Below, in pieces: positions 346-47,770 of a stretch of 47,770 bases of DNA. The notes beneath the pieces are model-generated. The model did no database searches, was not told the DNA's origin, and was given only the letters and a program-made list of their open reading frames with translations. The translations under genes and the position numbers were made by a program. Every line of letters starts with the position of its first letter. Within the stretch, counting starts at the first letter, position 1. The DNA comes from a virus, in IMG/VR virus record IMGVR_UViG_3300002461_000080, positions 1-47,770 of that record; one strand, given 5' to 3'.

Positions 346-1812
346 TCAAATCGTGACCTTCCGGCGATGCTTGGCAATCGCCTTGCCCTTCGCGGCCCGC
401 TGCTCCTCCGCCTCCGCCGCCGCCTCGTCCTCCGGCGTGATGACGTCGTCGCAGTCGTCGAACCGGACCGTGTCCTTGTGGAACGTGAGCAGCTCGGTCC
501 CGGTCGGACCGTTGCGGTTCTTCTCGACGATGAACTCGGTGCGCCCGCCCTCCTTGTGATTCTTCCGGTGGAGCATGCCGACGATGTCCGCGTCCTGCTC
601 GAGCCCACCACTTTCGCGAAGGTCCTCGAGCTTCGGACGCCCGCCGCCGGTGCGCTTGAGCTGCGACGCGATGATGAACGCCACGCCTAGCTCGCCGGCC
701 AGGACCTTCAACCGTCGCGAGATGTCGGCCAGCTCCTCCGTCCTCGTCGCGTTGCGCCGCTGGAGTGACCCCTGCATCAGTTGCACGTAGTCGAGCGCGA
801 CGAGGTCGAGCCGGCCCTCCTCCGCCTGGACACGTCGACACTCGGCCCGCACGTCGCCCACTGTGAGGCCCGGCGTGTCGTCGATGTAGATGCCGGCGTT
901 GTGCATCCGCTCGATCGCCGCGTTCAGCGCCCGCCAGTCGTCGGAACCGGCCGCCGCCATGTAGCCGGCCGCGAGTCGGAGCGCCGGGATGCCGCTCAGC
1001 GACGACAGGAACCGATACTCGAGCTGTCGAGCCTTCATCTCCATCGAGAACACGAGCGCCACGCGCCGGCCGGCGTCGCCCTCCGGCAGCGCGAACTCCG
1101 CCGCCGCCATCAGCGTGTTGCACAGAAGCGCCGTCTTGCCCATCGACGGCCGCGCCGCGAAGATGATGAGGTCGCCGGCCTGCCAGCCGTTCGTCAGGTC
1201 GTTGATCTTCTTGAACCCGGTGTCGAGCCCGGTCAGCTTGCCCCGGTTCGCGACGCGGAACTCGAGGTCGGCCATCAGCGCCGAGCTGCGCGACGCCAGG
1301 GACGTGACGTCGGTCCGTCGCCCGCCGTGGCGGAGCTGCACGATCTCCCGGTCGACGTCCTCGAGCACGACGTCGATCTCGAGGTCCTGCTCGTAGGTCG
1401 CCGCGACGCCCTTGTTGAGCGCGTAGATGAGCGCCCGGCTGCGCGACTTCTGCCGCACGATGTCCGCGTAGTAGCGGACGTTAGTCGAGCGCGGCACGCC
1501 GTCGACGAGACTCGCGAGGTAGGCGGCGCCGCCGGCGTCCTCGAGGTCGCCGCGCCGCGTCATCTCCTCGCGGAGCAGCACGAAATCGACCGCGCCGCCA
1601 GGACGCTCGAGCAGCGACACCATCGCCTCGAAGATCCGCCGGTGCGCGTCGCGGAAGAAATCCGCCGGCTTCACCACCCGCGCCGCCTCGACGTAGGCCG
1701 CGTTGTTGATGAGCACCGCGCCGAGCACCGAACGCTCCGCGTCGAGATTGTGCGGCAGACTGCGCTCCGGCGCCGATTCGGCGCGCGGGTCCGCGCCGCG
1801 TTGCCGGCTCAC
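346..1812 (-). CDS. dnaB: Replicative DNA helicase, DnaB family.
   Basis: 488 aa. It has the DnaB N-terminal motif LPHNLDAERSVLGAVL, the Walker A motif ARPSMGKTALL and a RecA-like C-terminal domain. The GTG start overlaps the upstream stop (GTGA). Confidence 0.93.
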   Translation of the reverse strand: MSRQRGADPRAESAPERSLPHNLDAERSVLGAVLINNAAYVEAARVVKPADFFRDAHRRIFEAMVSLLERPGGAVDFVLLREEMTRRGDLEDAGGAAYLASLVDGVPRSTNVRYYADIVRQKSRSRALIYALNKGVAATYEQDLEIDVVLEDVDREIVQLRHGGRRTDVTSLASRSSALMADLEFRVANRGKLTGLDTGFKKINDLTNGWQAGDLIIFAARPSMGKTALLCNTLMAAAEFALPEGDAGRRVALVFSMEMKARQLEYRFLSSLSGIPALRLAAGYMAAAGSDDWRALNAAIERMHNAGIYIDDTPGLTVGDVRAECRRVQAEEGRLDLVALDYVQLMQGSLQRRNATRTEELADISRRLKVLAGELGVAFIIASQLKRTGGGRPKLEDLRESGGLEQDADIVGMLHRKNHKEGGRTEFIVEKNRNGPTGTELLTFHKDTVRFDDCDDVITPEDEAAAEAEEQRAAKGKAIAKHRRKVTI

Positions 1813-2285
1813 TGCCGCATCTCCGCGATCGAGCGCCGCGTGTGCTCGACGTCGGAGCGGCAGGGCGGCTTGTGTTTACAGCCAGCCGGCGCGTTGCCGC
1901 CCTCGAGCAGCTCGCCCTGGTCGGCGCCGTGCTGGTTGATCGTCGACGCGAACATCGACAGCGAGTGACTGACCTTCCCGTAGAACGGATCGTCGTTCGT
2001 GATGTAGCGCGGGATGCGCGCCAGGACCTCGTCGACCGGCATCGCCTTGAGCAGCCGCTTCACGGCCTGAGCATCCTTCGCGCCGACGAACACGTAGTCG
2101 CGACCGTAGCGTTTGCGCCACGCCAGCATGAACGCATCGCTGACGCGCTTCATCTGCTGCCCCAGGGTTTCCGAGCCCTCGAGCTTCGCCTCGAGCGCCT
2201 TCACCAGCTCGCCGCCACGCTCGAGCAGCGCCCGCATATCGCCCACGAACTTCCGCACATCCTCAACCTTCAACGTGTCACCCAT
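1809..2285 (-). CDS. Hypothetical protein. Its position suggests a helicase loader or replication organiser.
   Basis: 158 aa. A strong SD (AGGAGAG) precedes the ATG at 2285, and the stop overlaps the dnaB start. No catalytic motif was recognised. Confidence 0.7.
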   Translation of the reverse strand: MGDTLKVEDVRKFVGDMRALLERGGELVKALEAKLEGSETLGQQMKRVSDAFMLAWRKRYGRDYVFVGAKDAQAVKRLLKAMPVDEVLARIPRYITNDDPFYGKVSHSLSMFASTINQHGADQGELLEGGNAPAGCKHKPPCRSDVEHTRRSIAEMRQ

Positions 2286-2785
2286 TGGGCTCTCCTACTC
2301 TCGAACCTAGTGATGATCTCCAATCGATCATCCCGGAGGTTTCAGCCGGAATTGGCAAGGCTCCCCTATGCAGTCCGGGCAGCCTCGCCGTTGGTTGTCG
2401 GTTCGCTTTGCAGCTCCGTCCTACGGCCCGCAGTGACGCACGACGCCCTGCGGATGGTCAGACTATCGTCGGCGTCGTGCGCCGTCCCCTGCGGGCTCTA
2501 ACCTCGAGGCCCCACCCTGCGCGCTGAGCAGCTCCCGGTAGCGCGCTTCTATGGCCGATGCACCCCGGTGGCGTCGCTTGGCTCCCGGTGCGTCGGTGAT
2601 GGGTTGTGTGCGAGAATTGGCGGGTCCTCACCGACCGGCGTCGACGGGACCTTGACCCTTCCACCTCCGCCGGTCGGCTGACCAATGCGGGCGCCGTGAG
2701 CCCAACACTCACGGCGCCCGTGGACTTTAAGCGTCCCGGTTCTCGGAACGCAACACCCCAACAGGTAGTAGCGAACAGACGGCGA
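2286..2785. other. 500-bp non-coding region packed with GC-rich stem-loops. Candidate ncRNA, structured leader or replication origin.
   Basis: No credible minus-strand ORF is present. At least six perfect or near-perfect stems of 7-13 bp were read directly from the sequence; coordinates are in the findings. Confidence 0.6.
2687..2721 (-). terminator. Strong hairpin downstream of the early operon: 12-13 bp stem, 7-nt loop, no U tract.
   Basis: GGGCGCCGTGAG (2689..2700) pairs perfectly with CTCACGGCGCCC (2708..2719), and c2688 pairs with g2720. The hairpin lies about 70 nt after the stop at 2786. The minus strand has no T run after the stem. Confidence 0.4.
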
Positions 2786-3376
2786 TCAGCGCCAGCGACA
2801 CAGCGGCGTCGCCGGCCCGATCTTCGGATCGTTGAACCGTAGCGCGTTGAGGTTCAGCGTCACCGTGCCCGCGCCGGTCCACCGCCAGGACCACATCGCG
2901 CCGCCGTGCCACCAGATCGAATCGACGTCCGTCGCCCACTTCACGCTGCCCCAGGTGAGCGGCGCTCCGATGCCGGCGTCGAAGTTTCGATGAACCTGCG
3001 CGACGCACGTCGCGATGTCGAGCACGAGCGCCGAGCGCGTCGTCGTCTCGTAGGTGAGTAGCATCCAGCGCCCGCCGACGACTCGCAGGTCGCCCGGCAG
3101 GAAATGGAACCCGTGAACGCCCAGGTCGAACGGCGGCAGCGGCGGCAGCTCCGGCGGCGGCGCCGGCTTGCCTGGAGGTCCCGGAGGTCCCGGAGGCCCC
3201 TGCGGTCCCGGAGGTCCGGGGTTGCCCTTCGGTCCCGGAGGTCCCGGCGGACCGGGCGGACACTCGACCTTGCACTCGGTCGGCGGCGGCTGCCATGTCC
3301 GCGTGAGCTGCTCAGCCTGCACGCTCGTTGCTGCGAGCGCCAGAACCACGATCGTTGATAGTGCATACTGCTTCAT
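2786..3376 (-). CDS. Secreted collagen-like protein: signal peptide, 10 G-X-Y triplets and a globular C-terminal domain.
   Basis: The ATG at 3376 has SD GAGGAGG. The N-terminus is [23 protein letters not shown]. The collagen run is [30 protein letters not shown] (3164..3253), followed by a roughly 110-aa Trp-rich C-terminal domain. Confidence 0.75.
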
Positions 3377-3535
3377 GGAACGAGCCTCCTCGGCTCGACG
3401 TTGCCCGGCGACGCCCACCGCCGCCGGGTTCTTCACACTGGAGGGAACCATGCCGGTCATCTTCTTCATCGACGCTGCTGCGATCACGATCAACTGGTTT
3501 CTCGCGTGGGGCGGCGTCTGCTACTACTACCCGGA

Positions 3536-5401
3536 CTATTGCCCCGTCGGCTGGCGCCGCTGCCGGGACATGTAGAGGTCGATGAGCTTACTCGCCTCGC
3601 CCTTCTTGATGGTTGCCGCGTGGGGAATGCGGAGCCGCCGCAACAGTGCGAGCTGCTTCGGTGACGGCTCGTCATTCAGCCACGCGGCATCCTTCGACGT
3701 CAGCTTTGTGACCGCGCGCCGATGCTGGAGGATGAACGCCTCCGCCACGCCGGCGGCGCCGTCGGACGTGATGATCTGATTCGCGATCGTGGACTGCCGG
3801 CGCTCAGGCCGGCGCTTCTCGCCCTTCTCGAGCCGCTCGGTGAACGTGAGCACGACCTCCCACCGATCGAGGTAGTCCTTGCGGACCTCGATGCGCTCGT
3901 GGCCGTTGACGCCGGCCGCATCCTTCCACGGGTATTCCATCCGATACTCGTCGTCGCTCACCTTGAGCCACGTCATCGCCCGGCCCGTGCCGAACGCGCC
4001 CAGGTCCGGCACCTTCCAGATGTCGACGAGCTGCGCCTTCGCGCGGAGCTGCTCGAGCGTCAGGTGCGCGCCGTCCTCGAACGCCTTGCTCGAGTCGAAC
4101 CGCTCGAACTCCTTCATCAGCGCGTCGTAGTCGTCGGCCAGCCGCTCGAGCGGGTCGCCCTTGCCGATGAGGCCCGGCGGCAGCCCGTAGAGCACCGGCG
4201 CCGTCTGGAGTGAATGCCGACGCGCGACGTCGACGAGGTCGATGACGACACAATCGGCCTTGCCGTCGAACAGCCGGAGCCCGCGCCCGGTCATCTGCTC
4301 GTAGAGCGTCGACGACTTCGTCGGTTTCGCGTGGAGGATGCAGCTCGCGATCGGCAGGTCCGTCCCCTCGGTCAGCACCATGCAATTCGTGAGCACGTCG
4401 AGCCCGCCGGCGCTGAACCGCTCGAGGATGGCGCGGCGCTCGTCCTTCGGCGTCTCACCGCTCACGGCTGCCGCGCGATAGCCGGCCTTGTCGAACTCCG
4501 CCGCCAGCGCGTGAGCATGCGCGACGTCGACCGTGAACGCGATCGTCGGCCGGCCTTCCGCGTGTTCCCGCCAGCCGGCGACGGCCCGCAGGTTCCGCTC
4601 GTCCGTGTTGACCGCGTCCGCCAGCTCCCGCTGGTTGAACTCGCCCCGCGCGATGCGGACGCCGTCGAGCGACGTATCCGTCTCGATGGCCCACGGCACG
4701 ATCGGCACGAGCCAGCCGTCGCTGATAGCGTCGCGGAGCGCGTAGCTGTAGGCGATCGTCTGGAACACACAGCCGAGCCCGACGGCGTCCGAGCGGTTCG
4801 GCGTCGCTGTCACGCCGACGAGAAGCTGGTCCTTCGGAGCGACGCGGTCCCACCCCTTGAGCGCCTGCTCCATCGCCGCGACGTCCGTCTCCTCCGCGCG
4901 CTCGATGTCGTCGGCGCCGTCGTTCGGCATCGCCGGCAGGAACCGGAGTCGCGCCAGGGCGGCGCGGTAGGTGCGCGCGGCCGAGTGATGCGCCTCGTCG
5001 ACGATGACGATCCGGAACTTCATCGCCTTCGTCAGCCGCTCGAGCCGCCGGAACTTCATCGCGGCGAGTGTCTGAATGCTGGCGACCACGACGTCGAGCG
5101 ACGTCGACGCGCGGCGCTCGCCCTGCTCGACGCCCACGAGCAGCCCAGGGTTCGCCGCCCGGATCTTCGCCGCCGCTTGGTCGAGCAGCTCCTCACGGTG
5201 CGCGATGACGAGCATCCGGCGCTCGCCGGCCGGGAACGTCTCGAGCCACTCGCGGATGCGCTGCCACTTCATCATCTCCGCGAACGTGACCGTCTTGCCG
5301 GTCCCGGTCGGGCTCTTGATGAGCAGCCGGTTGAGGTTCTTCTCGAGAAACGTCGTCGCGATCGCCTCGAGCTGGTCCTGCTGGTAGGGCCGGAGCTTCA
5401 C
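3536..5401 (-). CDS. Superfamily 2 DEAH-box DNA helicase.
   Basis: 621 aa from a GTG at 5401 (GTGA overlap). Motifs are SPTGTGKT (I), VDEAHH (II), TATPNR (III) and QMTGRGLR (VI). Confidence 0.88.
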   Translation of the reverse strand: MKLRPYQQDQLEAIATTFLEKNLNRLLIKSPTGTGKTVTFAEMMKWQRIREWLETFPAGERRMLVIAHREELLDQAAAKIRAANPGLLVGVEQGERRASTSLDVVVASIQTLAAMKFRRLERLTKAMKFRIVIVDEAHHSAARTYRAALARLRFLPAMPNDGADDIERAEETDVAAMEQALKGWDRVAPKDQLLVGVTATPNRSDAVGLGCVFQTIAYSYALRDAISDGWLVPIVPWAIETDTSLDGVRIARGEFNQRELADAVNTDERNLRAVAGWREHAEGRPTIAFTVDVAHAHALAAEFDKAGYRAAAVSGETPKDERRAILERFSAGGLDVLTNCMVLTEGTDLPIASCILHAKPTKSSTLYEQMTGRGLRLFDGKADCVVIDLVDVARRHSLQTAPVLYGLPPGLIGKGDPLERLADDYDALMKEFERFDSSKAFEDGAHLTLEQLRAKAQLVDIWKVPDLGAFGTGRAMTWLKVSDDEYRMEYPWKDAAGVNGHERIEVRKDYLDRWEVVLTFTERLEKGEKRRPERRQSTIANQIITSDGAAGVAEAFILQHRRAVTKLTSKDAAWLNDEPSPKQLALLRRLRIPHAATIKKGEASKLIDLYMSRQRRQPTGQ

Positions 5402-5769
5402 CGCTTCGCCCTCCGTGCCTTCGCCAGCGCCGCCGCGTTGCCGATCGGGATGCCCGCCTCGCGCTTCGTCTCGACGGCCTTGCGGGCGCCGCGCCGGCGG
5501 TTCCGCGTCGTGATCTGGTCGCGCTGCGCGGCGATCGCGGCCGTCACCGGCGGCGGCACGTAGAACCTCGAGCCGCCCTCCGCGCCGACACGCTGCACGA
5601 ATACCGTCTCGCCCTTCTCGGTCCGGATCGTGAACACGATCCACGTCTCCGTATGACCGAGCAGGTCCTTCACTTCGATGCTCGAGCGCCGCGTCTCGAC
5701 GGCGGCAGGGTTGTTGCGGAGCCGTTCCAGCTCGCGGCTGTAGGCATCAGTCGGCAGGGTGTCGTTCAT
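5398..5769 (-). CDS. Hypothetical early protein with a basic C-terminal tail.
   Basis: 123 aa. The start has an ATGA overlap with the upstream gene and the stop overlaps the helicase start. The C-terminus is RNRRRGARKAVETKR..AKARRAKR. Confidence 0.6.
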   Translation of the reverse strand: MNDTLPTDAYSRELERLRNNPAAVETRRSSIEVKDLLGHTETWIVFTIRTEKGETVFVQRVGAEGGSRFYVPPPVTAAIAAQRDQITTRNRRRGARKAVETKREAGIPIGNAAALAKARRAKR

Positions 5770-6193: not shown

Positions 6194-7191
6194 CGGAGCA
6201 CCGTCGTGTTCTTCGTGGCCTTGACGCCCGGCCACATCTCGACGCGCTTGCCGAGCGAACGCGCGGCCCGGTTCAGCGCCGCCGCGTCGACGATGAACAC
6301 GTCGCGCGGGATGCCGTAGCCGCCCTCGAATGCCGCGTCGCGGAACTTCTCGAGGTCGACGACCGCCGCGCTCCACTGCTCCCGGTCGCCCGTGTTGAGC
6401 GCCGGCTTCGCCGCTGCCTCGATCTTGCCCTCGTCGACGTAGACGGGCATCTCCTTCATCACATCGATCTGCGTCCGCATCGTGTGAGCGGTCCGACGCG
6501 CCTCGATCGCCTTGAGGATCTTCTCGCTCGCCAGGAGCCGCGACGCCTGCCCGTTCGGGTCCTTGAACCCGGCTTCACGCGCCGCGCGCTCGCCGGCGCC
6601 GTGCCGCATGTAGCCCTCGACGAACGCCGTCTCGCGGTCGCTGAGGTCCGGGCTCGACTCCTCCGCCCGCAGCGCCGCCGCCTCGAACTCCGCCAGCTTG
6701 CGAGCGCGGTCCGCTTCCGCCTCCGCCTCCTGCTTGCGGCGCTCCTCCTGCTCGGCCAGGGCGGCGCGGCGCTTCTCGTTGTCGACGTAGGTCGTATGCA
6801 GCCGGGTCCCGTGCTTCTCCGCGTCCTCGAGCGGGTCGGTCGCTCGAGCGCGGCCGGCCGTCGTCATCCGGTGGAGCTTCGACAGCGCCGACGTGATGAC
6901 CTCCCAATGCGCCATCGCCGCCTTGCGCGCGTCGCGTGCGTCGATGACCTCCTGCCGGATCGCCGCGTCCTGTTCCTTCGTCGTCGGCACGGCCAGCGCC
7001 ATGATGCGATCGCGGCGCTCGACGGCCGCGCGTTCGATCTGCTGCGACGTGCGGAAGAACGTCGTCAGGTTCCGCAGCCAGTCGACGATGCCGATGCTCT
7101 CGGTCGCGACGAGCGCGACCTCCTGCGGCTCCGGCTCGAGAACCTCCGGAACCGCTGCCTTCGTCGTGCCCTTCTTCGTTGCCTTTGCCAT
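6190..7191 (-). CDS. Early protein with a coiled-coil region and a terminase-small-subunit-like HTH segment.
   Basis: 333 aa from the ATG at 7191 with SD GGGAGGG. The segment SDRETAFVEGYMRHGAGERAAREAGFKDPNGQASRLLASEKILKAIE resembles the N-terminal HTH of Terminase_2-type TerS. Confidence 0.7.
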   Translation of the reverse strand: MAKATKKGTTKAAVPEVLEPEPQEVALVATESIGIVDWLRNLTTFFRTSQQIERAAVERRDRIMALAVPTTKEQDAAIRQEVIDARDARKAAMAHWEVITSALSKLHRMTTAGRARATDPLEDAEKHGTRLHTTYVDNEKRRAALAEQEERRKQEAEAEADRARKLAEFEAAALRAEESSPDLSDRETAFVEGYMRHGAGERAAREAGFKDPNGQASRLLASEKILKAIEARRTAHTMRTQIDVMKEMPVYVDEGKIEAAAKPALNTGDREQWSAAVVDLEKFRDAAFEGGYGIPRDVFIVDAAALNRAARSLGKRVEMWPGVKATKNTTVLR

Positions 7192-7201
7192 GTGACCCTC
7201 C

Positions 7202-7417
7202 CTACTGAACGCCGAGCGCACGCTCGGCACGATCGACGCTGTCGCCAGCGCCGTAGTCCTGCTCGATCTTCTCCATGAGCTGCTCGGCTTCACGCTGCTG
7301 GCGGATGAACTGCTGCCCGATACGCCCCGGCGTGAGCTTCGCGTCAGCCGCGTAGGTTTCGGCCGCGACGCGCAGCGCGTTGATGATCGTCCACTGCTCG
7401 TGATCGGTGAGCTTCAT
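7202..7417 (-). CDS. Hypothetical protein, first gene of the early operon.
   Basis: 71 aa. SD GGGAGGG precedes the ATG at 7417, and the gene is directly downstream of the motif and palindrome. Confidence 0.65.
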   Translation of the reverse strand: MKLTDHEQWTIINALRVAAETYAADAKLTPGRIGQQFIRQQREAEQLMEKIEQDYGAGDSVDRAERALGVQ

Positions 7418-8222: not shown

Positions 8223-8813
8223 TCACAGCTCGCACCACTTCCGGATGATCTTCCGCGCCTCGCGGAAGTCCCGCGCGTGGTCGACGTGCTCCTCGACCTT
8301 GTAGCGGCCGTCGGCCTTGATGTAGAACGCGAACCGCGCGATCGCCTCCGGATGGCAATGCAGCGTCCGCGCCACGAGGATAGCCTGGAGCGCGGTCTGG
8401 AGCGGATGCCACTTCTCGAAGTCGCCGGTCTTGATCTCGCCCACCGACAACAGCCGCCAGACGTGCCCGACGCGGTCCGGCGTGCCACCGAACCGCAGGA
8501 GCGGATGCACGAACGGCTCCTCGAGATGCTCCCACGTCGGCCGCTGGAGCACATTCATCAGCTCGGCCCACGCGAGCAGGTAGCCCTTGAACGGACTGGC
8601 GACCGCCTTCGGGTCGTCGATCGCATCCAGATCGTAGTTGAGCGTCAGACGGTGGACCTCAGTGCCACGACGCCGGCCCTCCTCAGTGAGCCACGTCGTA
8701 TCGATCTTCCCGTCCTTGATGAGCATCTGCGTGACGCTCGGCAGGACCGCGCCGGTCGCCTCGTCGATGTATTCGTGAAGGTCCGCGTCGTAGCGGAGCG
8801 TCTCGCTCACCAC
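8223..8813 (-). CDS. PD-(D/E)XK (RecB/Cas4-like) exonuclease.
   Basis: 196 aa. It has the N-terminal pattern H.Y..........LPSVTQML and the D..(E)IK motif (GGTPDRV ... VGEIKTG). It sits immediately after the annealing-protein gene. Confidence 0.7.
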   Translation of the reverse strand: MVSETLRYDADLHEYIDEATGAVLPSVTQMLIKDGKIDTTWLTEEGRRRGTEVHRLTLNYDLDAIDDPKAVASPFKGYLLAWAELMNVLQRPTWEHLEEPFVHPLLRFGGTPDRVGHVWRLLSVGEIKTGDFEKWHPLQTALQAILVARTLHCHPEAIARFAFYIKADGRYKVEEHVDHARDFREARKIIRKWCEL

Positions 8814-9871
8814 GGCGGACCGTCATCCTCGCCCGGCTCCCTGGTCGCCGGCGCCGCCACCGGGACCATCGGCCCCGGCTTCGTGAGCTGCGAACAGGCT
8901 GCCTCGTAGAAGCGCCGTTCCATGTCGACCGTGTGCTCGACACCACAGACGATCCGCAGGTAGCCCTTGACCTCGTCGTCGGTCCGCTTCGCCTTTCGGG
9001 CGATCGTCCAAAACCGCTTCGCCTGCGGCTGCGAGATTTTCCGCGTGTCGGTCGCGTCGCGGCGCTCCTGAGCGGTCCGCCGGTCAGGCTCCCCGCCCTC
9101 CGTCCGAGGCTCCGATCGCTCGCCCTGCGCCGGCCTGGACCGATTCCCGGCCGTTCTAGGCTCCGCCACCCCCGTCTCGTCGTAGAACGGCGGGTCGACC
9201 TTCCGCCGCCACTGAGGTTTGGACCCCGACCGTCTCCAAACTTGGACACAGTGCTCGGCCTGCCACGCGGCGCCCCAGGACCGATCCCACAGCTCGAGCC
9301 CGATGCCGAGCCGCTTCGCCACCCGCCGGAGCGCGTTCGCGTTCAGCGCCTCGATCACGTCGCCGTAGGTCTGCTCGGCGTTGTCCGGATGGTATTCCTG
9401 CTCGGCCGTCGCCTGAGCGATCGGCTTGCCGTGAACGCACAACACGAACGTCTGCGTCGCGAGATGCTTGACCTCGCCGCCCTCCTGCGGGATCTCGACC
9501 ATCTTCGGCCGCGCCGCCGGCAGCATCGTCCACTGCCCACGCCCGAACGCGCGATTGAACCAGCGCGTGTATTCGATGTGCGAGTAGTAGACCGCGCCCG
9601 TCGGCTTCACGAGCACGCGGGCCGGATCGACCGGCTCCGCCAGGACCGCCTCCGCCTCCGCGCTCAGCGCGAGCGGCTGGAACCCGAGCTGCCCCAGGAT
9701 CGGGTTCTCGCTCAGCTCGACTGCCGCCGCCGGCGCGATCGCCGGCAGGACCTCGACCTTCGGCCGCACGGATGCGAGCCGCTGGACCTGCTTCGCGAGC
9801 TTGTCGAGCTTCGCGTTGTAGTCCGGACGACGCGCGAGCGCCGTCGTCGCCTTCTTCGCTTTCGGTGCCAT
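8807..9871 (-). CDS. Single-strand annealing protein, Rad52-superfamily-like.
   Basis: 354 aa from the ATG at 9871. It contains VYYSHIEYTRWFNRAFGRGQW and ALRRVAKRLGIGLELWD, which are Rad52/Sak-type motifs recalled from memory. It is paired with an exonuclease gene. Confidence 0.5.
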   Translation of the reverse strand: MAPKAKKATTALARRPDYNAKLDKLAKQVQRLASVRPKVEVLPAIAPAAAVELSENPILGQLGFQPLALSAEAEAVLAEPVDPARVLVKPTGAVYYSHIEYTRWFNRAFGRGQWTMLPAARPKMVEIPQEGGEVKHLATQTFVLCVHGKPIAQATAEQEYHPDNAEQTYGDVIEALNANALRRVAKRLGIGLELWDRSWGAAWQAEHCVQVWRRSGSKPQWRRKVDPPFYDETGVAEPRTAGNRSRPAQGERSEPRTEGGEPDRRTAQERRDATDTRKISQPQAKRFWTIARKAKRTDDEVKGYLRIVCGVEHTVDMERRFYEAACSQLTKPGPMVPVAAPATREPGEDDGPPW

Positions 9872-9906
9872 CGTTCCCCCCAACAAAGGGAACGGGCCGG
9901 CCGGCT

Positions 9907-13303: not shown

Positions 13304-14113
13304 TTAGAGGCCGACGTAGTAGCCGACGTTGATACGGTTCAGCACGGCAGCCCCCGCCGCCGGCATCGTGAATGTGGTGTTGGTGTTGGCGACGAGTGAC
13401 TTGAGCGGGTTCGCGAGCTGCATGTCGACGTCGATCTGCGTGCCGCCGGCAGCCATCGCATTGCCCACCGACCACACCGGACTCCCCGGCAGGTTCGCGG
13501 ACGTGTGGAGCAGGGTCGCCGTGCCCGCGAGCGCGGCCGTCGCGTTCCGCATCATGTTCAGATACGTGATGTAGTGGAACAGGCCGACGCCAGCGGCCGG
13601 CAGCGTCGCCGTTGCGCCCGTGTTGGCTGCGGCCGTCACCGTCACCCATAGGACGGTCGGCAGCGGCTTACTGTAGGCGATGATCCGCGCGCCGCTCGCC
13701 CTGAGCGCGACCGTGATGTTCCCCGACGTGAAGGCTGAGACGCGCACACGCACGCGCTTGTAACCGCTGCATCCGACGAAATAGCTGGCGGAGTGCGTCG
13801 TCGTGATCGTGACGCTGTTGACGAACTGCTCGCTCGCCGCTGTTGCTGCAACGAGACTGCCGACCGCCAGCGCCGGCAGCGGGAAGTAGTTGGTTCCGTC
13901 GACCGTTCCCTCGAACACGTAGGTCAGCGATCCGGCGCCAGTGCGAACGTCGATCGCGACTGTCGAGCAGCCGTCCACGTCCGCCAGGACCTCGGCGTTC
14001 GCCGCCGCGAGGAGGTTGGTGAACGTCCGGCTGTCCGTGTTGACTTCGCCGTTGACGCGATCGGGGAACAGGCCCCGGATCTCATTCCCTCGAGCATCGT
14101 AGAGTGTCGGCAT
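13304..14113 (-). CDS. Hypothetical tail or fibre-associated protein.
   Basis: 269 aa. The start overlaps the collagen-fibre stop (TGATG), and the composition is Thr/Ala/Val-rich and beta-type. Confidence 0.6.
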   Translation of the reverse strand: MPTLYDARGNEIRGLFPDRVNGEVNTDSRTFTNLLAAANAEVLADVDGCSTVAIDVRTGAGSLTYVFEGTVDGTNYFPLPALAVGSLVAATAASEQFVNSVTITTTHSASYFVGCSGYKRVRVRVSAFTSGNITVALRASGARIIAYSKPLPTVLWVTVTAAANTGATATLPAAGVGLFHYITYLNMMRNATAALAGTATLLHTSANLPGSPVWSVGNAMAAGGTQIDVDMQLANPLKSLVANTNTTFTMPAAGAAVLNRINVGYYVGL

Positions 14114-15096
14114 CAGAGCACCATGTAATCGAGCACGAGGTTCCCCCCGAGCGGCTGCTCGCCCTCGAGGAGCAACGTGAAGTTACCAGAACCCGGCACG
14201 GCCCGCATGCACAGGTCATCTTCCATCGGCGCGTCGACGTCCGTCTCTGCGACGCCCGCCAGCCACGGCAGCACCTTCGAGGCTCCCGTGACGCTGCCCG
14301 CCGTGACCACGACCGAATGCGACCGCTTCGCCGGCCAGCCGAGCGCCACGACGACGCGCGTCGCGGAGCCGCCACCGCCGCCCGCCGGTCCCTGCGGCCC
14401 GGTCGCGCCCGGCGGTCCCGGTGGCCCCGGCACGCCGACGCCGTCGCGGCCCGGCGGACCCTGGAGGCCCTGAGCGCCTGCCGGTCCCTGCGGGCCGGTG
14501 GCGCCCGGCGCCCCCTGCGCTCCCGGAGGTCCGGCTGGTCCGGCCATACCGGCGGCGCCTGGAGGCCCAGGAGCGCCCTGCGGCCCGGCTGGACCCTGCG
14601 GCCCGGTCGAGCCCGTGGCGCCAGGAGTGCCCGCGACGCCTGGAGGCCCCTGCGGACCCACCGGGCCGGCCGCTCCGACGGGTCCGGGCGCCCCAGGGTT
14701 CCCCGGTGGCCCCTGCGGGCCGGTCGCTCCTGCGGGTCCCTGTGAGCCCTGGACGCCCGGCGGACCCTGCGGCCCGGTGGCGCCCGGAGGCCCCATCATG
14801 CCCGGCGTGCCCGCCGGTCCCTGTGCGCCCGTCGCGCCGGCGGGTCCCTGAGCGCCGAACGCGCCCGGCGGTCCGCCCGGTCCCGGAGGCCCGGCGGGTC
14901 CCGGCGGTCCCGGAGGTCCGGGCGCTCCGCTGCCGCCGCCGCTCGAGCTGCTGCCGCCGAGGCCGATCGCCGGCGTGCCGTCCTGCCGTGCGAGCCCGAC
15001 GTTGATGCGATTCGAGACGCGCGTAACCTTCCCGCGCGCCGACGGGTCGACCGTCGTGCGATTGAGTCCGCGCTGCGCCTTCGAGAACTTCGGCAT
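14113..15096 (-). CDS. Collagen-like tail fibre protein.
   Basis: 327 aa. It has about 55 uninterrupted G-X-Y triplets, one interruption (GVGV), then about 6 more. Non-collagen N- and C-terminal domains flank the repeat. The gene occupies the gp17 position after the internal proteins. Confidence 0.75.
14377..14928 (-). repeat. Coding 9-bp-periodic G-X-Y (collagen) repeat tract.
   Basis: GGN-CCN-rich triplet periodicity is visible in the DNA and translates to [13 protein letters not shown]... Confidence 0.85.
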
Positions 15097-18000
15097 CTAC
15101 TTCGGCGCTCCGGAGATGAGTGCCATCGGGTTCGACGTCTTGCCCTCGACGAGCGCCGCGAACCCTTCGATCGTCCGCTTCACCTGTCCCGCAGGATAGT
15201 GGAACACGGCGCCGGCCGTGTCATTGAGTGACCGCCAGAACGCCGCGTCAGGCTCACCCTGTTCGACCTGCTGCACGAGCCGCGACGCGCTCGAGAACGC
15301 CCGCGCGCCGGCCGGTCCCTCGTAGCCGTAGCCGTTGCCGACGACGCCGGCGATCTCGCGCGTGATGACCATCGTGCCCAGGATGTAGGCAGCCTGCTCC
15401 CGCGCCAGCCGCACCGCGAGGTCCTCGTCGTCCTCGTCGCTGCCCGGCTTGATCGCCTCTCGCAGCGCCAGCCCCATCAGCGCCGGCACGGTGTAGAGCA
15501 GGAGGTAGTCGACCATCAGCCGGCCGATGTCCCCCGGCTTGCGGAAGTTGGTGCGCCGCGTCGACTCGGCCGCGAGGTTGTAGGTGACGTTGAAGAACGA
15601 ATAGAAATTCGTCCACAGCCGCAGGAGCGGCCCGCCGCGCTGGATGCCGGCGAGGTCCTTGACCTGCCCGCCGCCCTGCGAGTCGAGCACCGCCTGATCG
15701 GCCTGCGCGATCGCCGCCGCCTCGTCGACGCCACTCTCGAGCGCCTTCTCATACTGGCCGAGCCACGTCGGCAGGTCCGCGATGAGCTGCGCCTGCTGGA
15801 TGAGGAAGAAATAGCTATCCGCGACACCCTGCCGCGTCGCCTTGCCGCCGCTCACGCCCTTGAGCACGTCGTCGATCCAGCCGGAGAACGTGCCCGTGTT
15901 GACGCCGACGGCGTTGCGGATCTCGTTGATCTCGCGCTGCTGCGTCCGGCCGCGCTCGCGCATGAACGTCGACCGCTCCCGGACCCATGCCGCCGTGTTC
16001 TCCATCGTTGCCGCGTCGCGGAGCCAGCGCGCCATGCCGCGCGCTACCCACTTCGGCCCGATGCGGACCATCGACTGCGTGAGGCCGATCGGCTGGAGCA
16101 GCGCCGTCGTGATGTTCCAACCGAGCCCGGCGATCGTCGCGCCCTGCCGGAGATGGTTGATTGCGCGCTCGAACGCGCCGGTCGCCGGCACGTCCCCGAT
16201 CGCGATGTCGCGGACGCCGTTCTTGAGCTGCTTGTAGACGACGTCGCCGTGCGTCTCGTAGATCGCCGCCTGCACCGCCGGATGCCCCAGGACGCGGCCC
16301 ACGTCGATGAGCGTCTCGTGGTGGCTCAGGTCGTGGATGACCTGCCGAACGTGCTCGAACATCACACCGAAGTCCCGGCGGACCGGCAGCTTCACGCCGT
16401 CGACGCGCGCCTTCGTGTGCCCGCGCTTCGTCGTGCTCTGCGCGTAGGCAGCCGCTCGAGCCAGCCCCGCCTCCTCGACGTCGACGAACGCGCCGGCCTT
16501 CGCGCTCCGCCGCTCGTCATACTTGAGCGGGAAGTAGCCGCCAGCGAACTCCCCGAACGGCGTGCGGATCGTTGCCGCTTCGACCTTCTCCGGCGCGATG
16601 CCGTAGACGCGCTCCTGCTTCGCGGCGATGTCCGACCAATACCCGTTGATCATGTCGAGCACGCCCTGAACGAACTGCCAGTCGCTTTCCGACAGCGTCG
16701 CCAGGATGCCGGCGACCTGCTCGTCGGTCCACCGCTCGGAGCGCCGGATGCGGTCCCGGTTGCCCTCGTTGCCCCAATTCAGGGCGATGCCGATGCGCTC
16801 CATCTTCGATAGTGACCGGCCCACCGACGGCGCCAGCTCCTTCGTGTAAAGCGCCCGCTTGTCTCGAGCCGTCGGGAACGCCGCGTCGACGAGCGCCTGG
16901 AACTTCGCCGCCGCCTGCGCGTTCATCTCCGCCTCTCGAGCGCCGGCTTCGTTCAGCGGCCGGACGACCGCCTCCCACATGGCGCCGCCGTCCTCGAACC
17001 CGTCCATCTCGCGCACGAGGCTGGCGATCTTCCGGTGGCTGGCGATGAAATCCTGCACGCCGCGCATGCGCTCCGTCGACGGCCGGCGATCCATCTCACC
17101 GGCGCTCGCCGGCTTGCCCTTGAAGTTGGCGCGGATCGCCGTGGCGATCTCGTCGGCCGTGGCATCCAGCTCCCGCTGCGCCGCCGCCTTGAGTAGCCGG
17201 TTCTTGAGCCGCGCCAGATGCACCAGCGCCTTGAGGCCGTCCGTCACGCCGACGAGCTGCTCCACCGTGAGGTTCTGGTAGTTGGTTCGCAGCGCCTCGT
17301 TGAGCAGCTCCTCCGGCATGTCCGTCGGGAGCCCCTGCGACTCGAGCCCTTCGATGAACTTCACCAGCGACGCGCGGCGGTCGAGCGCCTGCTGGCTTAC
17401 CCGCGCGAACTCGAACCGATCGAGGATGCCGTCGATCTGGTCGAGATAGTTGTGCCCGGCGAGGCCGATGCTCGAGCGCGTCGTCGGCCGCGCCAGTCCC
17501 CGCGCGAACTTCACCCGCGCCTCGACGTCCTCGAGCACGCGCTGAGCTTCGCGGTAGAGCGCGAGGTTGAGCAGCTCCTTCCGCTTCGACTCGATCGCGC
17601 CGTCGTAGTCGGTGCGCGCGGCGCGCTCGAGCGCCTGCTGCGCGGCCCGGCGGCTGGCGTGCCAGAACACATCCGGCTTGACCTGCCGGATCTTCATGCT
17701 GGCGATCCGCGCCTTTGCCGCCGCGACGACGTCCTCGTGTCGCGGCAGCGCCGCGTTGATGACGCGCGCCCCGCCTCGAGCCTTGCGCCGCAGCTCCGAC
17801 AGCTCGGCCTGGAGCTGGTCGATCTCGAGCTGCTTGGCGCCCTCCGCGATCGCGACTCGCAGCTTCGTCTCCGCCTCGAGGAACCGGCGCTCGTAGTCCC
17901 GCTCCCGGCGCTCGGCTGCGAGCTGCCGGCCCGCCGCCTGCTCGAACGGCCGCACCGTGGCCCTCAGCTTCGCCAGGGCTCGCAGCTCGGCCCGGACGAT

Positions 18001-21000
18001 GACGTCCCGGTCCTCATTCGAGATAGCGGCCTGAGCGGCATTCTGGAGCGTCCCATCGAGCAACAGGCTCCCGTGCTCGGCCAGCATCCGCTGTTCGGTC
18101 CGCGCCCGGATGACCTCCCGCGCCGGCGCCGCCTCCGTAACCGCCTGGAGCAGCGCGTCGCCAGAGTCGTAGCCGAACATGCTGGCGACGAACTCCGGGT
18201 CGAGCCCGCCGTCGGCCGCGTAGATGTAGGGCCGTGGCAGCCGCTTGAGGTAGTCGAGCCCGTAGCGCGCGACGAGGATCGCCCGCGACAGCCGCAGCGG
18301 CTCCGTCTCGAGGCCCTCAACCATCGGGCTCCCGTCGGGCAGCGTCCCCCGCTGCATCGCCGCCAGCGCCCGGTAGACCGGCTCCGCGTAGACCTCCGCC
18401 GCGACCTCCGCCTCGATCTCGTTCCGCCGCGCCTTCCACTGCTTCGTCTGCTCGCGCTGAACCTCCGCCATCAGCCGGCGATCGAGCTGCTCGCGGGCCG
18501 TCCGGTTCGCCGCCTGGATGGTCCCCTCGTAGAGCGCGAACTCCTCCGGCGTCATGCCCGCCGACTCCGCCGTCGTGAACATCGGCGGCGCGTTGCGGAG
18601 GTCGTTGGCCTGTGCGATCGCCACGTCGCCGGCGACCATGCGGTCGACCACCGCCCGCACTTCCGGCGTGAACTGCACGCCGAGCCGGCTGAGCGAACGG
18701 TAGACGCCGAGAATCCACGCGCGGAACCTCGAGAACGCGCTCTGCAACCGGAGCGACGGCGCCTTGCCTTCGCCCAGGTATGCCTCGAACGCCGCCGCAA
18801 ACTTCTCGTGCTGGTCGACGCCGATGCCGGCGCGGCTGTCAACCTCGAACCACTCGAGCAGCGTCGCGTAGTCCGCGATGAGCGCCTGCTGCTGCGCGGT
18901 CCGAGTCGCCGGGTCGCTCGCCTTTACCTTGTCGACGAGGTCGCCCATCAGCTCGAGGAACAGGTGCCCCGACTCGTGGAGGAACGTCGTCAGGTCCGCA
19001 CGCTCGAACAGGCTGATGCTGACCTGCCGGCCAGGACCGAACCGGATCGCCCCGCGACGGCCGCGCTCCTCGGTCTGGTAGAGGATGCGCGGGTCGTTCG
19101 GGTCGAACGTGCCCACGTTGCCGACGGCGCTCTTGACCTGCTCCGGCTTGAACACGATGTAGTGAACCGTGTCCGCGTCCATGCCGGCCATCGGCGTGCC
19201 CATCTTCTTCTGGCTGCCGAACTTCGTGTCGACCGTCGTGTCGACGATGCCGTCGTAGCCGAGCCGCTCGATCGTCCGGCGGATGATCTCGCCGCGAATC
19301 AGGTTCCCCTGGTCGTCGGTCGCGTAGCCGAGCTGCTCGCTCGTGAGCAGGATCTCGATCGCCCCTCGGAGCGGGATGCCGTCGTAGTCGCGCGCCCGTT
19401 CCATGATGCGGTCGACGACGTCGCCCAGGTCGGAGAACTCGACGTCGTTCGCGAGGTCGACCTCCGCCTGGAGCGCCTCGAGGAACTCGAGCACGCCGCC
19501 GCCCTCGGTCGGGTCGTAGCCCTCGCGGTCGCTCAGCTCTTGGACGATCTGCTCGTCGTCCATGCCCTCCGCCCGCAGCTCCTCGACGTCGGCCGGCTCG
19601 AACGACGTGATCGGCTCGTCGTAGACGCGCGTGTAGTCGAGCAGTGACTCGTTGCGCCCGCCGAGCCGCGCCGGCCGCTCCATCTTGAGGTAGACGGGCA
19701 TCGTCATCCCGCCATGCTTCACGCCGAGCCGGTCGAGCGCCAGCAACCGCACCGCCGCGAACCGATCGTCTGGCGCCAGCGTCCGGTCCTGCCGCGTGAG
19801 GTCCTGCTTCGCCCGCGCGATCTCCTCCGGCCGCTCCGCGACGATCGCGTCGAGCTGCTCGATGATGTCCTCGTCGTCCATCTCGAGCGCGCTCTCGATG
19901 CGCTCCACTTCGCGCGACAGCTTGCTTGCGAGGTCCGGCCCCGCCTCGGTGGCGTAGTTGGCGCCGACGTCGCGCGGGTTGTTCGAGAAGTAGATGCCGG
20001 CGCCCAGGTCCGACTCGACGTTCGCCCGCGTGGGATCGAACGTGTCGAAGTCGCCCGTCGTGCCGTGGTAGACCACCAGCGGCTCGCCGTCCTCGTCGAC
20101 GATCTGGCTTTCCCCGAACCACTTCCGGAGGTTCTGCTCGCGCGCCGTCGAGCCGTGCGCTTCGTTCGACTGCTCGGTGACGGCCTGCACGAAATCGCGG
20201 CGCTCCTTGCCCGTGACCGGCTTGCCGTTCTTGTGCGTGAGCTGAACGATCGAGTCGTCGAACACGACCATGTTGCGGAGCTTCTTCCGCTTGCCCTGGT
20301 CGCGGCTGTTGGCGTCCTCGTATTTCAGCCCCGGCACGCCGGCAGCCAGGAGCTTGAGGCTCGCCAGCCGCGCCGCATCCTCCGCCGCGCGCTCCTCGAG
20401 CACTGCGAGCTGCACGAACTCGTCGTAGTCGGCGCCGAACTGCGCCCGCACCCGCTCCTCGCTCGAGCCGGATGCGATGCCGCCGCCCGTCGGCTGCGCC
20501 GGATGCTTCGCCCGCAGCTCCTCCGCGCGCTCGCGGAGCGGCTTGCGGATGCGCTCCTCCTCGTCGGCCTGGATGATGCGATAGGCCATCTCGCCGTTCG
20601 CCGGCTGCGACATGCTGCCGCGCTCGAGCGTGTAAGCCTTGAACGCGCTCTTGAGCTGACGCGGCCCGTTGTCCTTCGGCCCCAGGTAGCCGCGCCGCTT
20701 GAGGCCCTCCCGCACGAGGTCCTGCACCGGCTTCGGCTGCTTGTCGATCGGCGCGTCCCAATCGAGCATCTTCGCGACCTGCGCGTCGTCGATCTCGATC
20801 TGGTAGACCCCGCCCTTCACCGGGTCCCATCGCACGGACGCGGCGCCCGGCTTCGCCAGCTCGTCGCGGAGCCGCTTCGTCGCCTCGATGCCCTCGGTCC
20901 ACTCCTCGATCGCGAGGTCCTTCGCGTGTTGATCGAGCCACTCGAGCACGTAAGCCTGGAACCCGTCCTCGCCGCGCCCGAGCAGCTCGAGCGGATTCGC

Positions 21001-46056: not shown

Positions 46057-47088
46057 TCACCACAGGTTCGGGTCGTTGCCGAACGCATCCCACCCCTCGA
46101 CCTTCTCACGAGCGAACAGCTCGAGGTAGGGTCCGGTCGTGAACATGCGTTCGATCATCTTGCGCGTGACAGCCGGCTTGACACTGTGCCCGGTCCGCCG
46201 CTCCGTGAACAGGCTCTTGGGGACCTCGCCCTCGTCCGGCGCGCACGAACCGCGCTCGCAGATGACGAGATGCTCCGTGTTGATATGCAGGAACCGGCCA
46301 GGGTTGCCGAGCACCTTGTCCCACGTCTGCATGCTGGCGTAGTTGAACCCCCACGCCTCGAGCACTTCGCGCGGCCCAGGGTTCTCGAGCAGGAGCGGCA
46401 CCGTCACCCACATGAACAGGACCGCATTCTTCAACGTGTGAGCCGCGACCGGGAGCTTGCACAGCTCCTCGATCGACATGTCCGGATAGTGATGCTTGAC
46501 CGAGCTGTTGCCGCCCGTGCCCGACGTGTTCCGGTAGCGCCAGGGCGGATCGGCGTAGATGACGCGGTAGAGCCCCTCGAGCTTCGCCTGCCCCTTCACG
46601 ACGGCCCGGCGCTTCGACGCGCGGACCTCGTTGCGAAGGTCGGCCACGCTCCACCCGTCGCGCTTCGCGCGCTCGAGCCAGATGCGTTGTTGCGCCGGGT
46701 CCATCGACGCCACGACGTCGGCGTGCCCGAGTGAATCGGCCAGGGCGCGCTCCGGCGGCTTGACGTTGCGCGAGATGTAGGTCCGGTTGATGAGCGTCTT
46801 GTGGCTCAGTGTCGAGACGCCCTTGATCTGGTCGACCTTCGCTTTCCAGTCCTCGCGGTTCTCCGCGTAGGCCAGGAGGTCGCCCACCCAATAGTCCGCC
46901 GCGTGCCCGCATGCCTCCGCGAACACGTAGGCCGCTTGCCACTGCGCGGCCGTCGGCGTGCCCATCGGCTCGACGGATTGCGAGTAGAACATGAAGCCGT
47001 CGATCTCGAACGGCTTCTTGTCGAACAACAGCCGAGCGGCCGTGTCGGCAGTGAGCGCCGCCGACACGGCCCGAGCGACTTTACTCAT
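46057..47088 (-). CDS. MT-A70 family DNA N6-adenine methyltransferase with an N-terminal DNA-binding-like domain.
   Basis: 343 aa from the ATG at 47088. It has the catalytic motif VIYADPPWRY and the downstream block LFMWV..WGF...W.K. The N-terminal roughly 190 aa include LGHADVVASMDPAQQRIWLERAKRDGWSVADLRNEV. Confidence 0.85.
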   Translation of the reverse strand: MSKVARAVSAALTADTAARLLFDKKPFEIDGFMFYSQSVEPMGTPTAAQWQAAYVFAEACGHAADYWVGDLLAYAENREDWKAKVDQIKGVSTLSHKTLINRTYISRNVKPPERALADSLGHADVVASMDPAQQRIWLERAKRDGWSVADLRNEVRASKRRAVVKGQAKLEGLYRVIYADPPWRYRNTSGTGGNSSVKHHYPDMSIEELCKLPVAAHTLKNAVLFMWVTVPLLLENPGPREVLEAWGFNYASMQTWDKVLGNPGRFLHINTEHLVICERGSCAPDEGEVPKSLFTERRTGHSVKPAVTRKMIERMFTTGPYLELFAREKVEGWDAFGNDPNLW

Positions 47089-47521
47089 CGCCCTCGCCTT
47101 CACCGAGGTCGTGAGCTTCCGGGTTGCCCAGGTCGTCGACGTCGACCGTGGCCTGCGCGTCGCCCTTGTAGGGTCGAACGCTGAGCTTCGCCGTGCCACC
47201 GCGCACGAGCAGCTCGACGCCGTGGTGATGGTAGCTCTTGGTTTTCGTCTCGAGCATGTGATCGAGCGCGGCCTGCTTGTTCGCCTCGACGTTCGTCCGC
47301 AGCTCGTTCATCGCGGCGCCGTCGTCACCGATACGACGACACAGCTTGTCGAGCGTCGCGTCGCGGACCTGCTCCATGCCAGGGAGCGCCCGCGCCGCCG
47401 GCTGCCGATGCCGTTCGCGCGCCGATCGAACCTTCTTCGCGACGTCCTTCGACTTCGCACCCTTCGCCTTGCCGCGCGGTTTCGGTGTCCGTGCCCGCGC
47501 CGGCTTCGACTTCTTCGCCAT
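47081..47521 (-). CDS. Hypothetical protein with a highly basic N-terminus.
   Basis: 146 aa with SD GGGAGAG. The N-terminus is MAKKSKPARARTPKPRGKAKGAKSK, and the C-terminus is acidic. Confidence 0.6.
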   Translation of the reverse strand: MAKKSKPARARTPKPRGKAKGAKSKDVAKKVRSARERHRQPAARALPGMEQVRDATLDKLCRRIGDDGAAMNELRTNVEANKQAALDHMLETKTKSYHHHGVELLVRGGTAKLSVRPYKGDAQATVDVDDLGNPEAHDLGEGEGDE

Positions 47522-47534
47522 CGTCGTCTCTCCC

Positions 47535-47770
47535 TTACGCTCGAGCGCCTCCGCGCGACGTGCCGACCTCGAGCCGTCGGCCGTGCTCCGCGATCAACAG
47601 GGCATCCGCGATCGCGTGCGTCATGATGATGCGCGGGAACAGCTTCGCCGCGCGTCGCTTCGTGACGTTCTTGTCGCCGCCACTGCGGCAGCCGAGCGCG
47701 TCCTGCCACTTCTGAGGCCGGACCGCCGTGAGCGGCAGCCTGAACGCGGCCAGCACGCCCTGAATGTTCC
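47535..47770 (-). CDS. ruvC: RuvC-like Holliday junction resolvase, 3-prime part.
   Basis: The C-terminal peptide is ..RPQKWQDALGCRSGGDKNVTKRRAAKLFPRIIMTHAIADALLIAEHG, containing the RuvC-type AxADAxxIA acidic motif. It is in frame with the 5-prime part. Confidence 0.85.
   Translation of the reverse strand, partial: NIQGVLAAFRLPLTAVRPQKWQDALGCRSGGDKNVTKRRAAKLFPRIIMTHAIADALLIAEHGRRLEVGTSRGGARA
47677..47770. repeat. Terminal direct repeat copy 2, identical to 1..94.
   Basis: Direct comparison of the two window ends. Confidence 0.95.

Follow-up and report, generated by a model that had tools for sequence, protein, structure and literature searches.

A covarying sense-strand structure at the lambda-origin position of uncultivated podovirus-like phages: a candidate replication RNA

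The gap and its neighbouring genes

The IMG/VR virus record IMGVR_UViG_3300002461_000080 (47,770 nt; this whole stretch is called the window below) is a complete podovirus-like genome, and one part of it, positions 2286-2785, was predicted from its letters alone to be a gene-free, hairpin-dense region that could be a structured non-coding RNA (ncRNA), a long regulatory leader or a replication origin. This part, referred to here as the gap, carries a conserved promoter-like element and a covarying structure on the sense strand. Its position is homologous to that of the repeat arrays inside lambda-O-type initiator genes of distant phages, and the protein encoded directly after it lacks one domain of such initiators and has a Cys/His motif that the distant proteins do not have. 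The gap may thus specify an RNA for the initiation or control of replication.

All real genes of the window lie on the minus strand, as judged by third-position G+C. In gene direction, an SNF2-type helicase gene (3536-5644) and a collagen-like gene (2786-3493) precede the gap, which is followed by a gene for a 158-aa protein (1809-2285) and by dnaB (346-1812). The genes before the gap had been labelled an early operon, a label that had to be dropped: the SNF2-type helicase and collagen-like genes are the end of a genome-long minus-strand string. The features of the locus, in gene direction, are as follows.

2754-2785, minus strand: conserved block from the upstream stop codon (TGA, 2786-2788) to the -35 box, GATCGCC...TTCGC.CTAC...TTGGGG, with nearly invariant columns in the 13-sequence alignment
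2724-2753, minus strand: sigma-70-like promoter, -35 TTGCGT (2753-2748), 18-nt spacer, -10 TAAAGT (2729-2724)
2688-2720, minus strand: H1, a G+C-rich hairpin of 13 bp that begins 3 nt past the -10 box and would form the 5' end of the transcript; 6 of 12 pairs compensatory
2620-2687, minus strand: variable region of low conservation, with a window-specific 10-bp hairpin (2631-2640/2668-2677)
2600-2619, minus strand: conserved C/A-rich linker poor in G (AAUUCUCGCACACAACCCA), single-stranded in all consensus folds
2555-2596, minus strand: H3 stem-loop with repeat copy 1, ACCGGGAGC (2581-2589); 7 of 13 pairs compensatory
2509-2546, minus strand: H4 hairpin, GCGCGC(U)/(A)GCGCGC (2519-2525/2540-2546), loop with repeat copy 2, ACCGGGAGC (2531-2539), then GGGUGGGGC
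2456-2503, minus strand: H5a three-way junction, with a 7-bp closing stem (2497-2503/2456-2462), hairpin a (2486-2495) and hairpin b (2470-2484)
2439-2443 with 2475-2479, minus strand: kissing loop or pseudoknot between the apical loop of H5b and the loop of hairpin b, supported by covariation
2427-2454, minus strand: H5b, a long hairpin; 4 of 12 stem pairs compensatory
2354-2389, minus strand: 3' domain hairpin, GGCGAGGCU...AGCCUUGCC (consensus fold columns 364-395); at columns 365/394, both partners change, from GC to AU
2312-2349, minus strand: two small hairpins before the ribosome-binding site, CCGG...CCGG (2333-2349) and GAUGAUC/GAUCAUC (2312-2332)
2283-2296, minus strand: Shine-Dalgarno sequence GGAGA (2291-2295) and ATG (2285-2283) of the 158-aa gene, as read in the sequence
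1809-2285, minus strand: 158-aa gene; residues 34-125 homologous to the C-terminal domain of lambda-O-type initiators (hhalign probability 97.9%)
346-1812, minus strand: DnaB-type replicative helicase gene (PF00772 and PF03796, E = 2e-72; phrog_19), overlapping the stop codon of the 158-aa gene

The gap was confirmed to be free of genes. Third-position G+C, ~0.9 in the genes on either side, drops sharply to 0.65-0.75 in every phase across ~2286-2790, and relatives differ by single-base insertions and deletions inside the most conserved core of the gap. A hidden protein gene was rejected on the grounds of these indels and of the missing codon periodicity. Gene calls in the circularly assembled genome and in its relatives, crude as the calling was, also agree with the claim that this is the only long non-coding stretch. 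Within the gap, G+C is lowest (57%) in the final 60 nt before the ATG, and there is no clear AT-rich block.

Conservation, promoter and fold

Homologues of the 158-aa protein formed 18 clusters with 32-94% identity and led to metagenome contigs of 45-47 kb (given as L numbers below) with the same gene order and a gap at the same place. The gap was present in all 13 relatives with DNA. It measures 477-506 nt, the outlier L013 excepted, in relatives whose 158-aa protein is 50-94% identical and also in L031 and L036, two deeper members that came from scans of IMG/VR with patterns based on the conserved core and that encode a remotely homologous protein downstream (29% identity between L031 and the window). 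A 180-nt core of the gap shows 70-86% DNA identity, compared with 65-76% for the 158-aa and dnaB genes. A covariance model of this core scored 93-196 bits in every member, with one copy per genome and nothing convincing elsewhere. L013 has a gap of 798 nt (4203-5000), in which the promoter, H1 and the variable region are nearly identical to those of L014; beyond them lies a longer, strongly diverged RNA of only partial resemblance, in which a three-way junction resembles H5 (4495-4575) and CCUGGGAGC...CCACCGGGG resembles H3 (4720-4752).

The element directly follows the helicase gene in L014, L013, L031 and L036, which indicates that the collagen-like gene was inserted ahead of the element in the window, and that the element stays linked to the gene behind it rather than to the one in front. 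The collagen-like gene is absent from these four relatives, and L004 has an unrelated 94-aa open reading frame (ORF) instead, so the site directly upstream of the gap promoter looks like a mobile cargo slot. No relatives of the RNA were found in isolated phages, plasmids or bacterial genomes, two matches in genome contigs being chance matches. The original prediction had proposed an Rfam search, which returned nothing: no Rfam 15 family matched the window or five to six relatives at gathering or permissive thresholds, the best sub-threshold matches (E ~1-4) being to unrelated miRNA or snoRNA models, and the gap RNA matched none of ROOL, GOLLD, HEARO and OLE. ARAGORN found no tRNA or tmRNA in the window.

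A motif of the form TTG-N3-N18-NANANT stands at the start of each gap, right after the upstream stop codon. The minus-strand candidate that had been pointed out in the window, TTGCGT-18 nt-TAAAGT at 2753-2724, is one instance of it, and 13 of 13 sequences retain its TTG, its 18-nt spacer and positions A2 and T6 of its -10 box; the -10 variants TAAAGT, TAGAGT and AACAAT differ by substitutions that preserve A2 and T6. TTG-N21-TAAAGT occurs once in the genome. The promoter agrees with the E. coli consensus, which may not be that of the host, at only 7 of 12 positions in the window and 7-8 of 12 across the members, and a simple scanner does not call it; support for it is therefore comparative. 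A start 6-8 nt downstream of the -10 box would fall on the first bases of H1. The scanner called no antisense promoter in the gap. The conserved block ahead of the -35 box contains short (A)TCGC(C/T) repeats, as read from the alignment, and may be an UP element or an operator. Elsewhere in the genome, the best consensus promoter match, TTGACA-17-AAGAAT (10 of 12 positions), was found at 321-349 on the minus strand, at the dnaB stop codon and ahead of a Holliday-junction resolvase gene, so the gap promoter is not the sole promoter candidate.

Consensus folds were computed by RNAalifold from MAFFT alignments made without reference to a structure, and the helices were consistent between alignments. 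Among the 13 sequences, 93.5% of the cells in consensus helices were paired, compared with 39-45% in slid controls, and 25 pairs were changed on both sides, compared with 9-11, a count higher than that of independent events, because the sequences fall into about four clades. The covariation score was 0.267, compared with 0.04-0.08 in slid controls, and none of 500 shuffles reached the observed values. Slid controls keep the relatedness of the sequences and are thus the fairer comparison, and they stay far below what was observed. H1, H3, the three-way junction H5a and hairpin H5b are the best-supported helices. In addition to this, the 441-nt sense strand has a folding energy of -215 kcal/mol, whereas dinucleotide shuffles give -189 ± 6 (z = -4.2) and none of 100 does as well, the comparative evidence being much stronger than this single-sequence energy. 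G-U cells outnumber A-C cells (83 vs 14), and consensus folding gives -97 kcal/mol for the sense strand vs -84 for the antisense strand; both results assign the structure to the gene strand, which is what an RNA would show. These data suggest that a conserved sense-strand structure is very probably under selection. Neither of the failures that the original prediction had allowed for, stems without covariation and a region variable or absent in close relatives, was found: covariation directly supports a structured RNA, and the gap with its well conserved core is present throughout the set.

The kissing contact has covariation support of its own. Double changes were seen in 5 of 5 pairs (CGA/UCG, CGG/CCG, CAA/UUG, and U-A vs A-U), 78% of its cells were paired vs 14-54% in slid controls, and 0 of 500 shuffles reached its covariation score. 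In the window, the contact is extended to 9-11 bp, and this extension is what had been read as the inner stem of a nested pair, 2426-2433/2489-2496 (8 bp) around 2437-2447/2471-2481 (11 bp). Both of these stems do exist in the sequence, but they are not the conserved fold: the consensus shows three local hairpins in their place, and the outer stem is unconserved. Nested long-range helices as a conserved alternative fold were rejected, since covariation was confined to the loop-loop part. A column-pair scan for further pseudoknots gave clade-split artefacts only.

The other stems that had been proposed were recovered, with small corrections. Those at 2312-2318/2326-2332 and 2519-2525/2540-2546 (7 bp each) and at 2631-2640/2668-2677 (10 bp) stand as described. 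The stem given as 2689-2700/2708-2719 is one pair longer (2688-2700/2708-2720, 13 bp), and the stem at 2555-2564/2587-2596 is present, but what had been called 'G-U' on the plus strand is, read along the gene strand, a C·A mismatch. The repeat GCTCCCGGT was found at 2531 and 2581 as claimed. Along the RNA, L031 and L036 have a perfect stem of different sequence at the position of H1; GGA(A/G)GGG, a purine motif, is conserved within the variable region, AUUCU and AACCC are conserved in the linker, and GCCACCGGGG in H3 is invariant in 13 of 13 sequences. H4 is almost invariant and so offers no covariation for or against it; its pairing is unproven, and two alternative pairings are predicted. H5a encloses an invariant unpaired ACGAUAG and has compensatory columns at 244/289, 245/288, 262/276 and 263/275. 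Further downstream, CCUCC is conserved within the CCGG...CCGG hairpin, and the hairpin position at 2312-2332 is kept in other clades with different sequence. H1 was also considered as an intrinsic terminator of the upstream genes and rejected: it is followed by no U-tract in any relative (CAUUGG, UAUUGU, CGCCAC and the like).

Origin, leader and other readings

The 158-aa protein has by itself no Pfam, PHROG or PDB sequence match. Its AF2 model is all-helical (pLDDT 79), with no structural match in the PDB. Its homology was recognised through 290-356-aa proteins of the distant phages L019, L020 and L023, to whose C-terminal part it aligns. The N-terminal halves of the L019 and L020 proteins match Phage_rep_O (Pfam), HTH domains and 'replication initiation O-like' PHROGs; that of the L023 protein gave no such match. 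The next gene in these phages encodes DnaB or a DnaC-like loader. Within the distant initiator-like genes, iterons and an AT-rich patch lie 20-110 nt ahead of the segment coding for the shared domain, the iterons being 5 x 22 bp in L020 (2276-2407) and 4-5 x ~26 bp in L019 (903-1052), with the array region of L023 at 2139-2394. Judged by this arrangement, the arrays are likely to be lambda-type origins in uncultivated phages. The window clade lacks both the DNA-binding half of the initiator and the iterons, and has a promoter and a folded RNA at that position. The gap thus lies directly upstream of an initiator-C-domain gene and dnaB, as the location of a lambda-type origin requires, and this positional homology lends independent support to the earlier suggestion of an origin beside the loader and DnaB genes. 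Residues 136-148, at the C-terminal end of the 158-aa protein, form a conserved C-x-H-x3-C-x5-H motif (CKHKPPCRSDVEH), possibly a zinc knuckle, that is found only in proteins of the RNA-carrying clade and is absent from the distant proteins. The AF2 model has low confidence at residues 120-132, just before this motif.

Because of the positional homology, and because loss of the DNA-binding module goes along with gain of a knuckle that may bind single-stranded nucleic acid, we tentatively favour a replication-initiation or control RNA at the origin position, with a probability of about 0.42. The gap would then be a transcription unit, in which host RNA polymerase reads the sigma-70-like promoter and produces a ~430-nt gene-strand transcript that runs into the 158-aa gene and dnaB. 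This transcript would open with a stable 5' hairpin, followed by a multi-helix core of H3, H4 and a three-way junction that kisses the neighbouring hairpin. We infer that the RNA is produced, that it is bound by the 158-aa protein and that initiation takes place at the gap. The RNA might take the place of the origin-binding domain and iterons of a lambda-O-type initiator, and the downstream protein would be the C-terminal domain of such an initiator after loss of the DNA-binding domain and gain of the Cys/His knuckle. The folded transcript could stay attached to its template, forming an R-loop or primer, or could be a scaffold that displays the two ACCGGGAGC motifs; the 158-aa protein would recognise it and then recruit the phage DnaB. 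In its full form, the proposal is that RNA specifies the origin of a double-stranded DNA phage: a promoter-driven, elaborately folded RNA of ~430 nt would replace winged helix and iterons, and a remnant initiator domain with a knuckle would read the RNA and load DnaB at the template. We regard this full form as doubtful. A replication role and an expression-controlling leader are not mutually exclusive, and a leader is nearly as good a reading.

Known origins resemble the gap in part. A lambda-type origin in the O gene likewise has an initiator-related gene followed by a helicase or loader gene, and the gap element lies immediately upstream of the part coding for the shared C-terminal domain, where the distant relatives have iterons. 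The lambda origin also requires nearby transcription. Unlike that origin, the gap has no iterons or origin-binding domain, is non-coding, has its own promoter and is selected for pairing in a single strand (RNA). RNA II of ColE1/pMB1 is, to our knowledge, the one case of a folded RNA joined with origin function, and its host-polymerase promoter lies several hundred nucleotides upstream. It shares with the gap a promoter and a multi-stem transcript of conserved length (~411-441 nt) in a replication-control region. The two have no sequence or Rfam relation, however; no antisense gene like that of RNA I was identified, the gap RNA runs into protein genes, and the phage supplies DnaB and an initiator-like protein. 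The T4 R-loop origins oriF and oriG (uvsY) also combine a promoter with a downstream transcript, and a small loader protein loads the helicase at the RNA-DNA hybrid. T4 relies on an unwinding element rather than on a conserved RNA fold, and no homology to it was found.

Several observations count against a role in replication. The gap holds no iterons, its sole direct repeat being a two-copy 9-mer, and no DnaA boxes or marked AT-rich unwinding element. Clustering of GATC (Dam) sites as an origin mark was rejected, because GATC is not enriched in the gaps (7.0/kb vs 7.5/kb elsewhere). GC skew had been proposed as a test for the origin, but it is monotonic, as all genes share one strand, and is thus uninformative. 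The homology that anchors the argument spans ~90 residues at 35% identity, the compensatory counts come from the few clades mentioned above, and the L013 version is not scored by the covariance model. A simple R-loop does not call for a tight RNA fold, and we know of fold and R-loop combined only in ColE1-type primers. The phage encodes an exonuclease and an Mgm101/Rad52-like annealing protein (both at 8223-9886, minus strand) as well as a Holliday-junction resolvase, and with this recombination set it might replicate by recombination without a dedicated origin. The RNA also abuts the ribosome-binding site, and a plain leader that controls expression is at least as economical an explanation.

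A purely cis-regulatory 5' leader would tune the amounts of the 158-aa protein and DnaB, with the origin elsewhere or at no fixed site. We consider this, the main rival reading, possible, if on balance rather unlikely. The anatomy fits it, as had been foreseen: the element has a conserved promoter on one side and the first gene's ribosome-binding site on the other, begins with a 5' hairpin of the mRNA-stabilising type and has a conserved core with covariation-supported stems, as expected of a riboswitch or cis-regulatory leader. Its highly conserved unpaired nucleotides and tertiary contact are aptamer-like, and two hairpin-displayed copies of ACCGGGAGC would suit a dimeric RNA-binding protein. 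Such a leader might sense a ligand or the host state, might allow translational autoregulation by the 158-aa protein, or might stabilise the mRNA by its 5' hairpin. Candidate anti-Shine-Dalgarno stretches are present, and a pyrimidine stretch (CCUCC, CUCCC, CUCUC) 40-50 nt ahead of the Shine-Dalgarno sequence could sequester it. However, the predicted unpaired probability there (0.25-0.57) is the same as the average of the RNA, which does not favour a sequestration switch, and the last 40 nt before the ATG are an open purine tract in L031 and L036. A length of ~430 nt is far beyond that of known bacterial cis-regulators, a terminator-type platform was not found in the gap, and a leader leaves the missing DNA-binding domain and iterons of the initiator-like protein unexplained. 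The T4 gene 32 pseudoknot and gene 43 operator are likewise structured RNAs directly upstream of a replication gene, possibly bound by its own product (the gp32 case is mentioned in PMC10690425), but they span tens of nucleotides, compared with ~430 nt and a 180-nt conserved core here. The antiterminator RNAs HK022 put, EAR and conAn also stand right behind a promoter and head a long string of co-directional genes. The gap RNA is much larger, and a processive antiterminator heading this one-strand genome was weakened as a candidate: no intrinsic terminators on the gene strand could be detected above chance, and there is at least one further promoter-like site (349-321).

The RNA could also be a free-standing ncRNA, processed from the mRNA or ending before it, that acts in trans on host or phage particles. 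Host takeover, an anti-defence decoy or a self-assembling ornate RNA of the ROOL/GOLLD type are possible roles. Its size, conservation, tertiary contact and carriage by a phage agree with this, palindromic loops (CCGG, AGCU, GCGCGC) could mediate self-association, and ROOL and GOLLD are themselves phage-associated, homo-oligomeric RNAs of hundreds of nucleotides with many helices and tertiary contacts (PMC12286853). Unlike these, the gap RNA fails their covariance models, is not beside tRNA genes, is linked to a replication gene and lacks a recognisable 3' end: neither a 3' terminator nor a conserved 3' end was found before the ribosome-binding site. Strict linkage to one downstream gene family across deep divergence and a single copy per genome further make a trans-acting role improbable. 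A DNA-level element with RNA structure as a secondary matter (a double-stranded origin, a packaging or terminal-repeat site, an operator array or a folded single-strand initiation site) is very improbable. Origins or packaging sites need a home, and the gap is the only long non-coding stretch; it is positionally homologous to iteron origins, short TCGC repeats lie upstream of the promoter, and the single-strand origins of plasmids and phages (sso/ssi) are strand-specific and folded, as the gap is. Compensatory changes, on the other hand, keep pairing rather than sequence, and the 83 G-U(T) wobbles, six times the number of A-C, are expected in RNA and costly in DNA, and exclude a symmetric cruciform; they favour RNA, although the letters by themselves do not separate it from folded single-stranded DNA. 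Iterons are absent here too, and contig break points of the relatives are scattered, away from the gap. Chance hairpins of a 69% G+C spacer, or an unannotated coding gene, would leave no functional element at all. G+C-rich DNA does fold well in silico, and sense-strand ORFs of 70-84 codons exist, but the fold energy against shuffles, the missing codon periodicity, the single-base indels, a core better conserved than the neighbouring genes and covariation far above controls exclude this reading in practice.

The element represents a new and well-supported family of large structured RNAs of uncultivated phages, for which a promoter, a predicted 5' end, a core fold and a tertiary contact are available; these features suffice for direct structural and genetic work. 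Phage RNA motifs catalogued in PMC10690425 are 29-151 nt long. If the gap is an origin, a protein-DNA module of origin recognition can be swapped for RNA in evolution, the phage has a counterpart of ColE1-type RNA-primed initiation with its own helicase, and the case bears on how replication origins are specified and evolve. If it is a leader, an unusually large regulatory RNA stands over a replicative helicase operon.

The rest of the genome

The two ends of the window are identical over 94 nt (1-94 = 47677-47770), and the assembly therefore represents either a circularly closed or a short-terminal-repeat form of a complete genome of ~47.7 kb, whose G+C content is 69%. The encoded structural set comprises a T7-type portal (PF12236), a major capsid protein, a large terminase and tail tube proteins. 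Identity of the portal to its counterparts in isolated Vibrio and epsilon15-like podoviruses does not exceed 47%, and no similarity to the window at the DNA level was found among isolated phages. No RNA or DNA polymerase gene was found among the window proteins. A 3643-aa ORF (15097-26028, minus strand), at the position of an internal virion protein, encodes a polyvalent protein with ART-PolyVal ADP-ribosyltransferase, LPD22, ParB_N and GNAT domains. A virion RNA polymerase of the N4 type, with hairpin promoters, was considered and rejected, as this protein has no polymerase domain or PDB relative.

The Holliday-junction resolvase gene comes after dnaB and wraps the window end; in L003, it occupies 6927-7412. 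Two genes of the window (2786-3493 and 14113-15096, both on the minus strand) encode collagen-repeat, tail-fibre-like proteins, the former being the one next to the gap. Right after the helicase gene of several relatives, where a spacer of 60-80 nt lies, a tiny ORF of 29-45 aa was called on the opposite strand (L003 3727-3831, L006 3707-3844, L004 3687-3776), which is probably spurious. The window also encodes an MT-A70 methyltransferase (46057-47199), and GATC occurs genome-wide at 6.4/kb, compared with ~2.9/kb expected by base composition.

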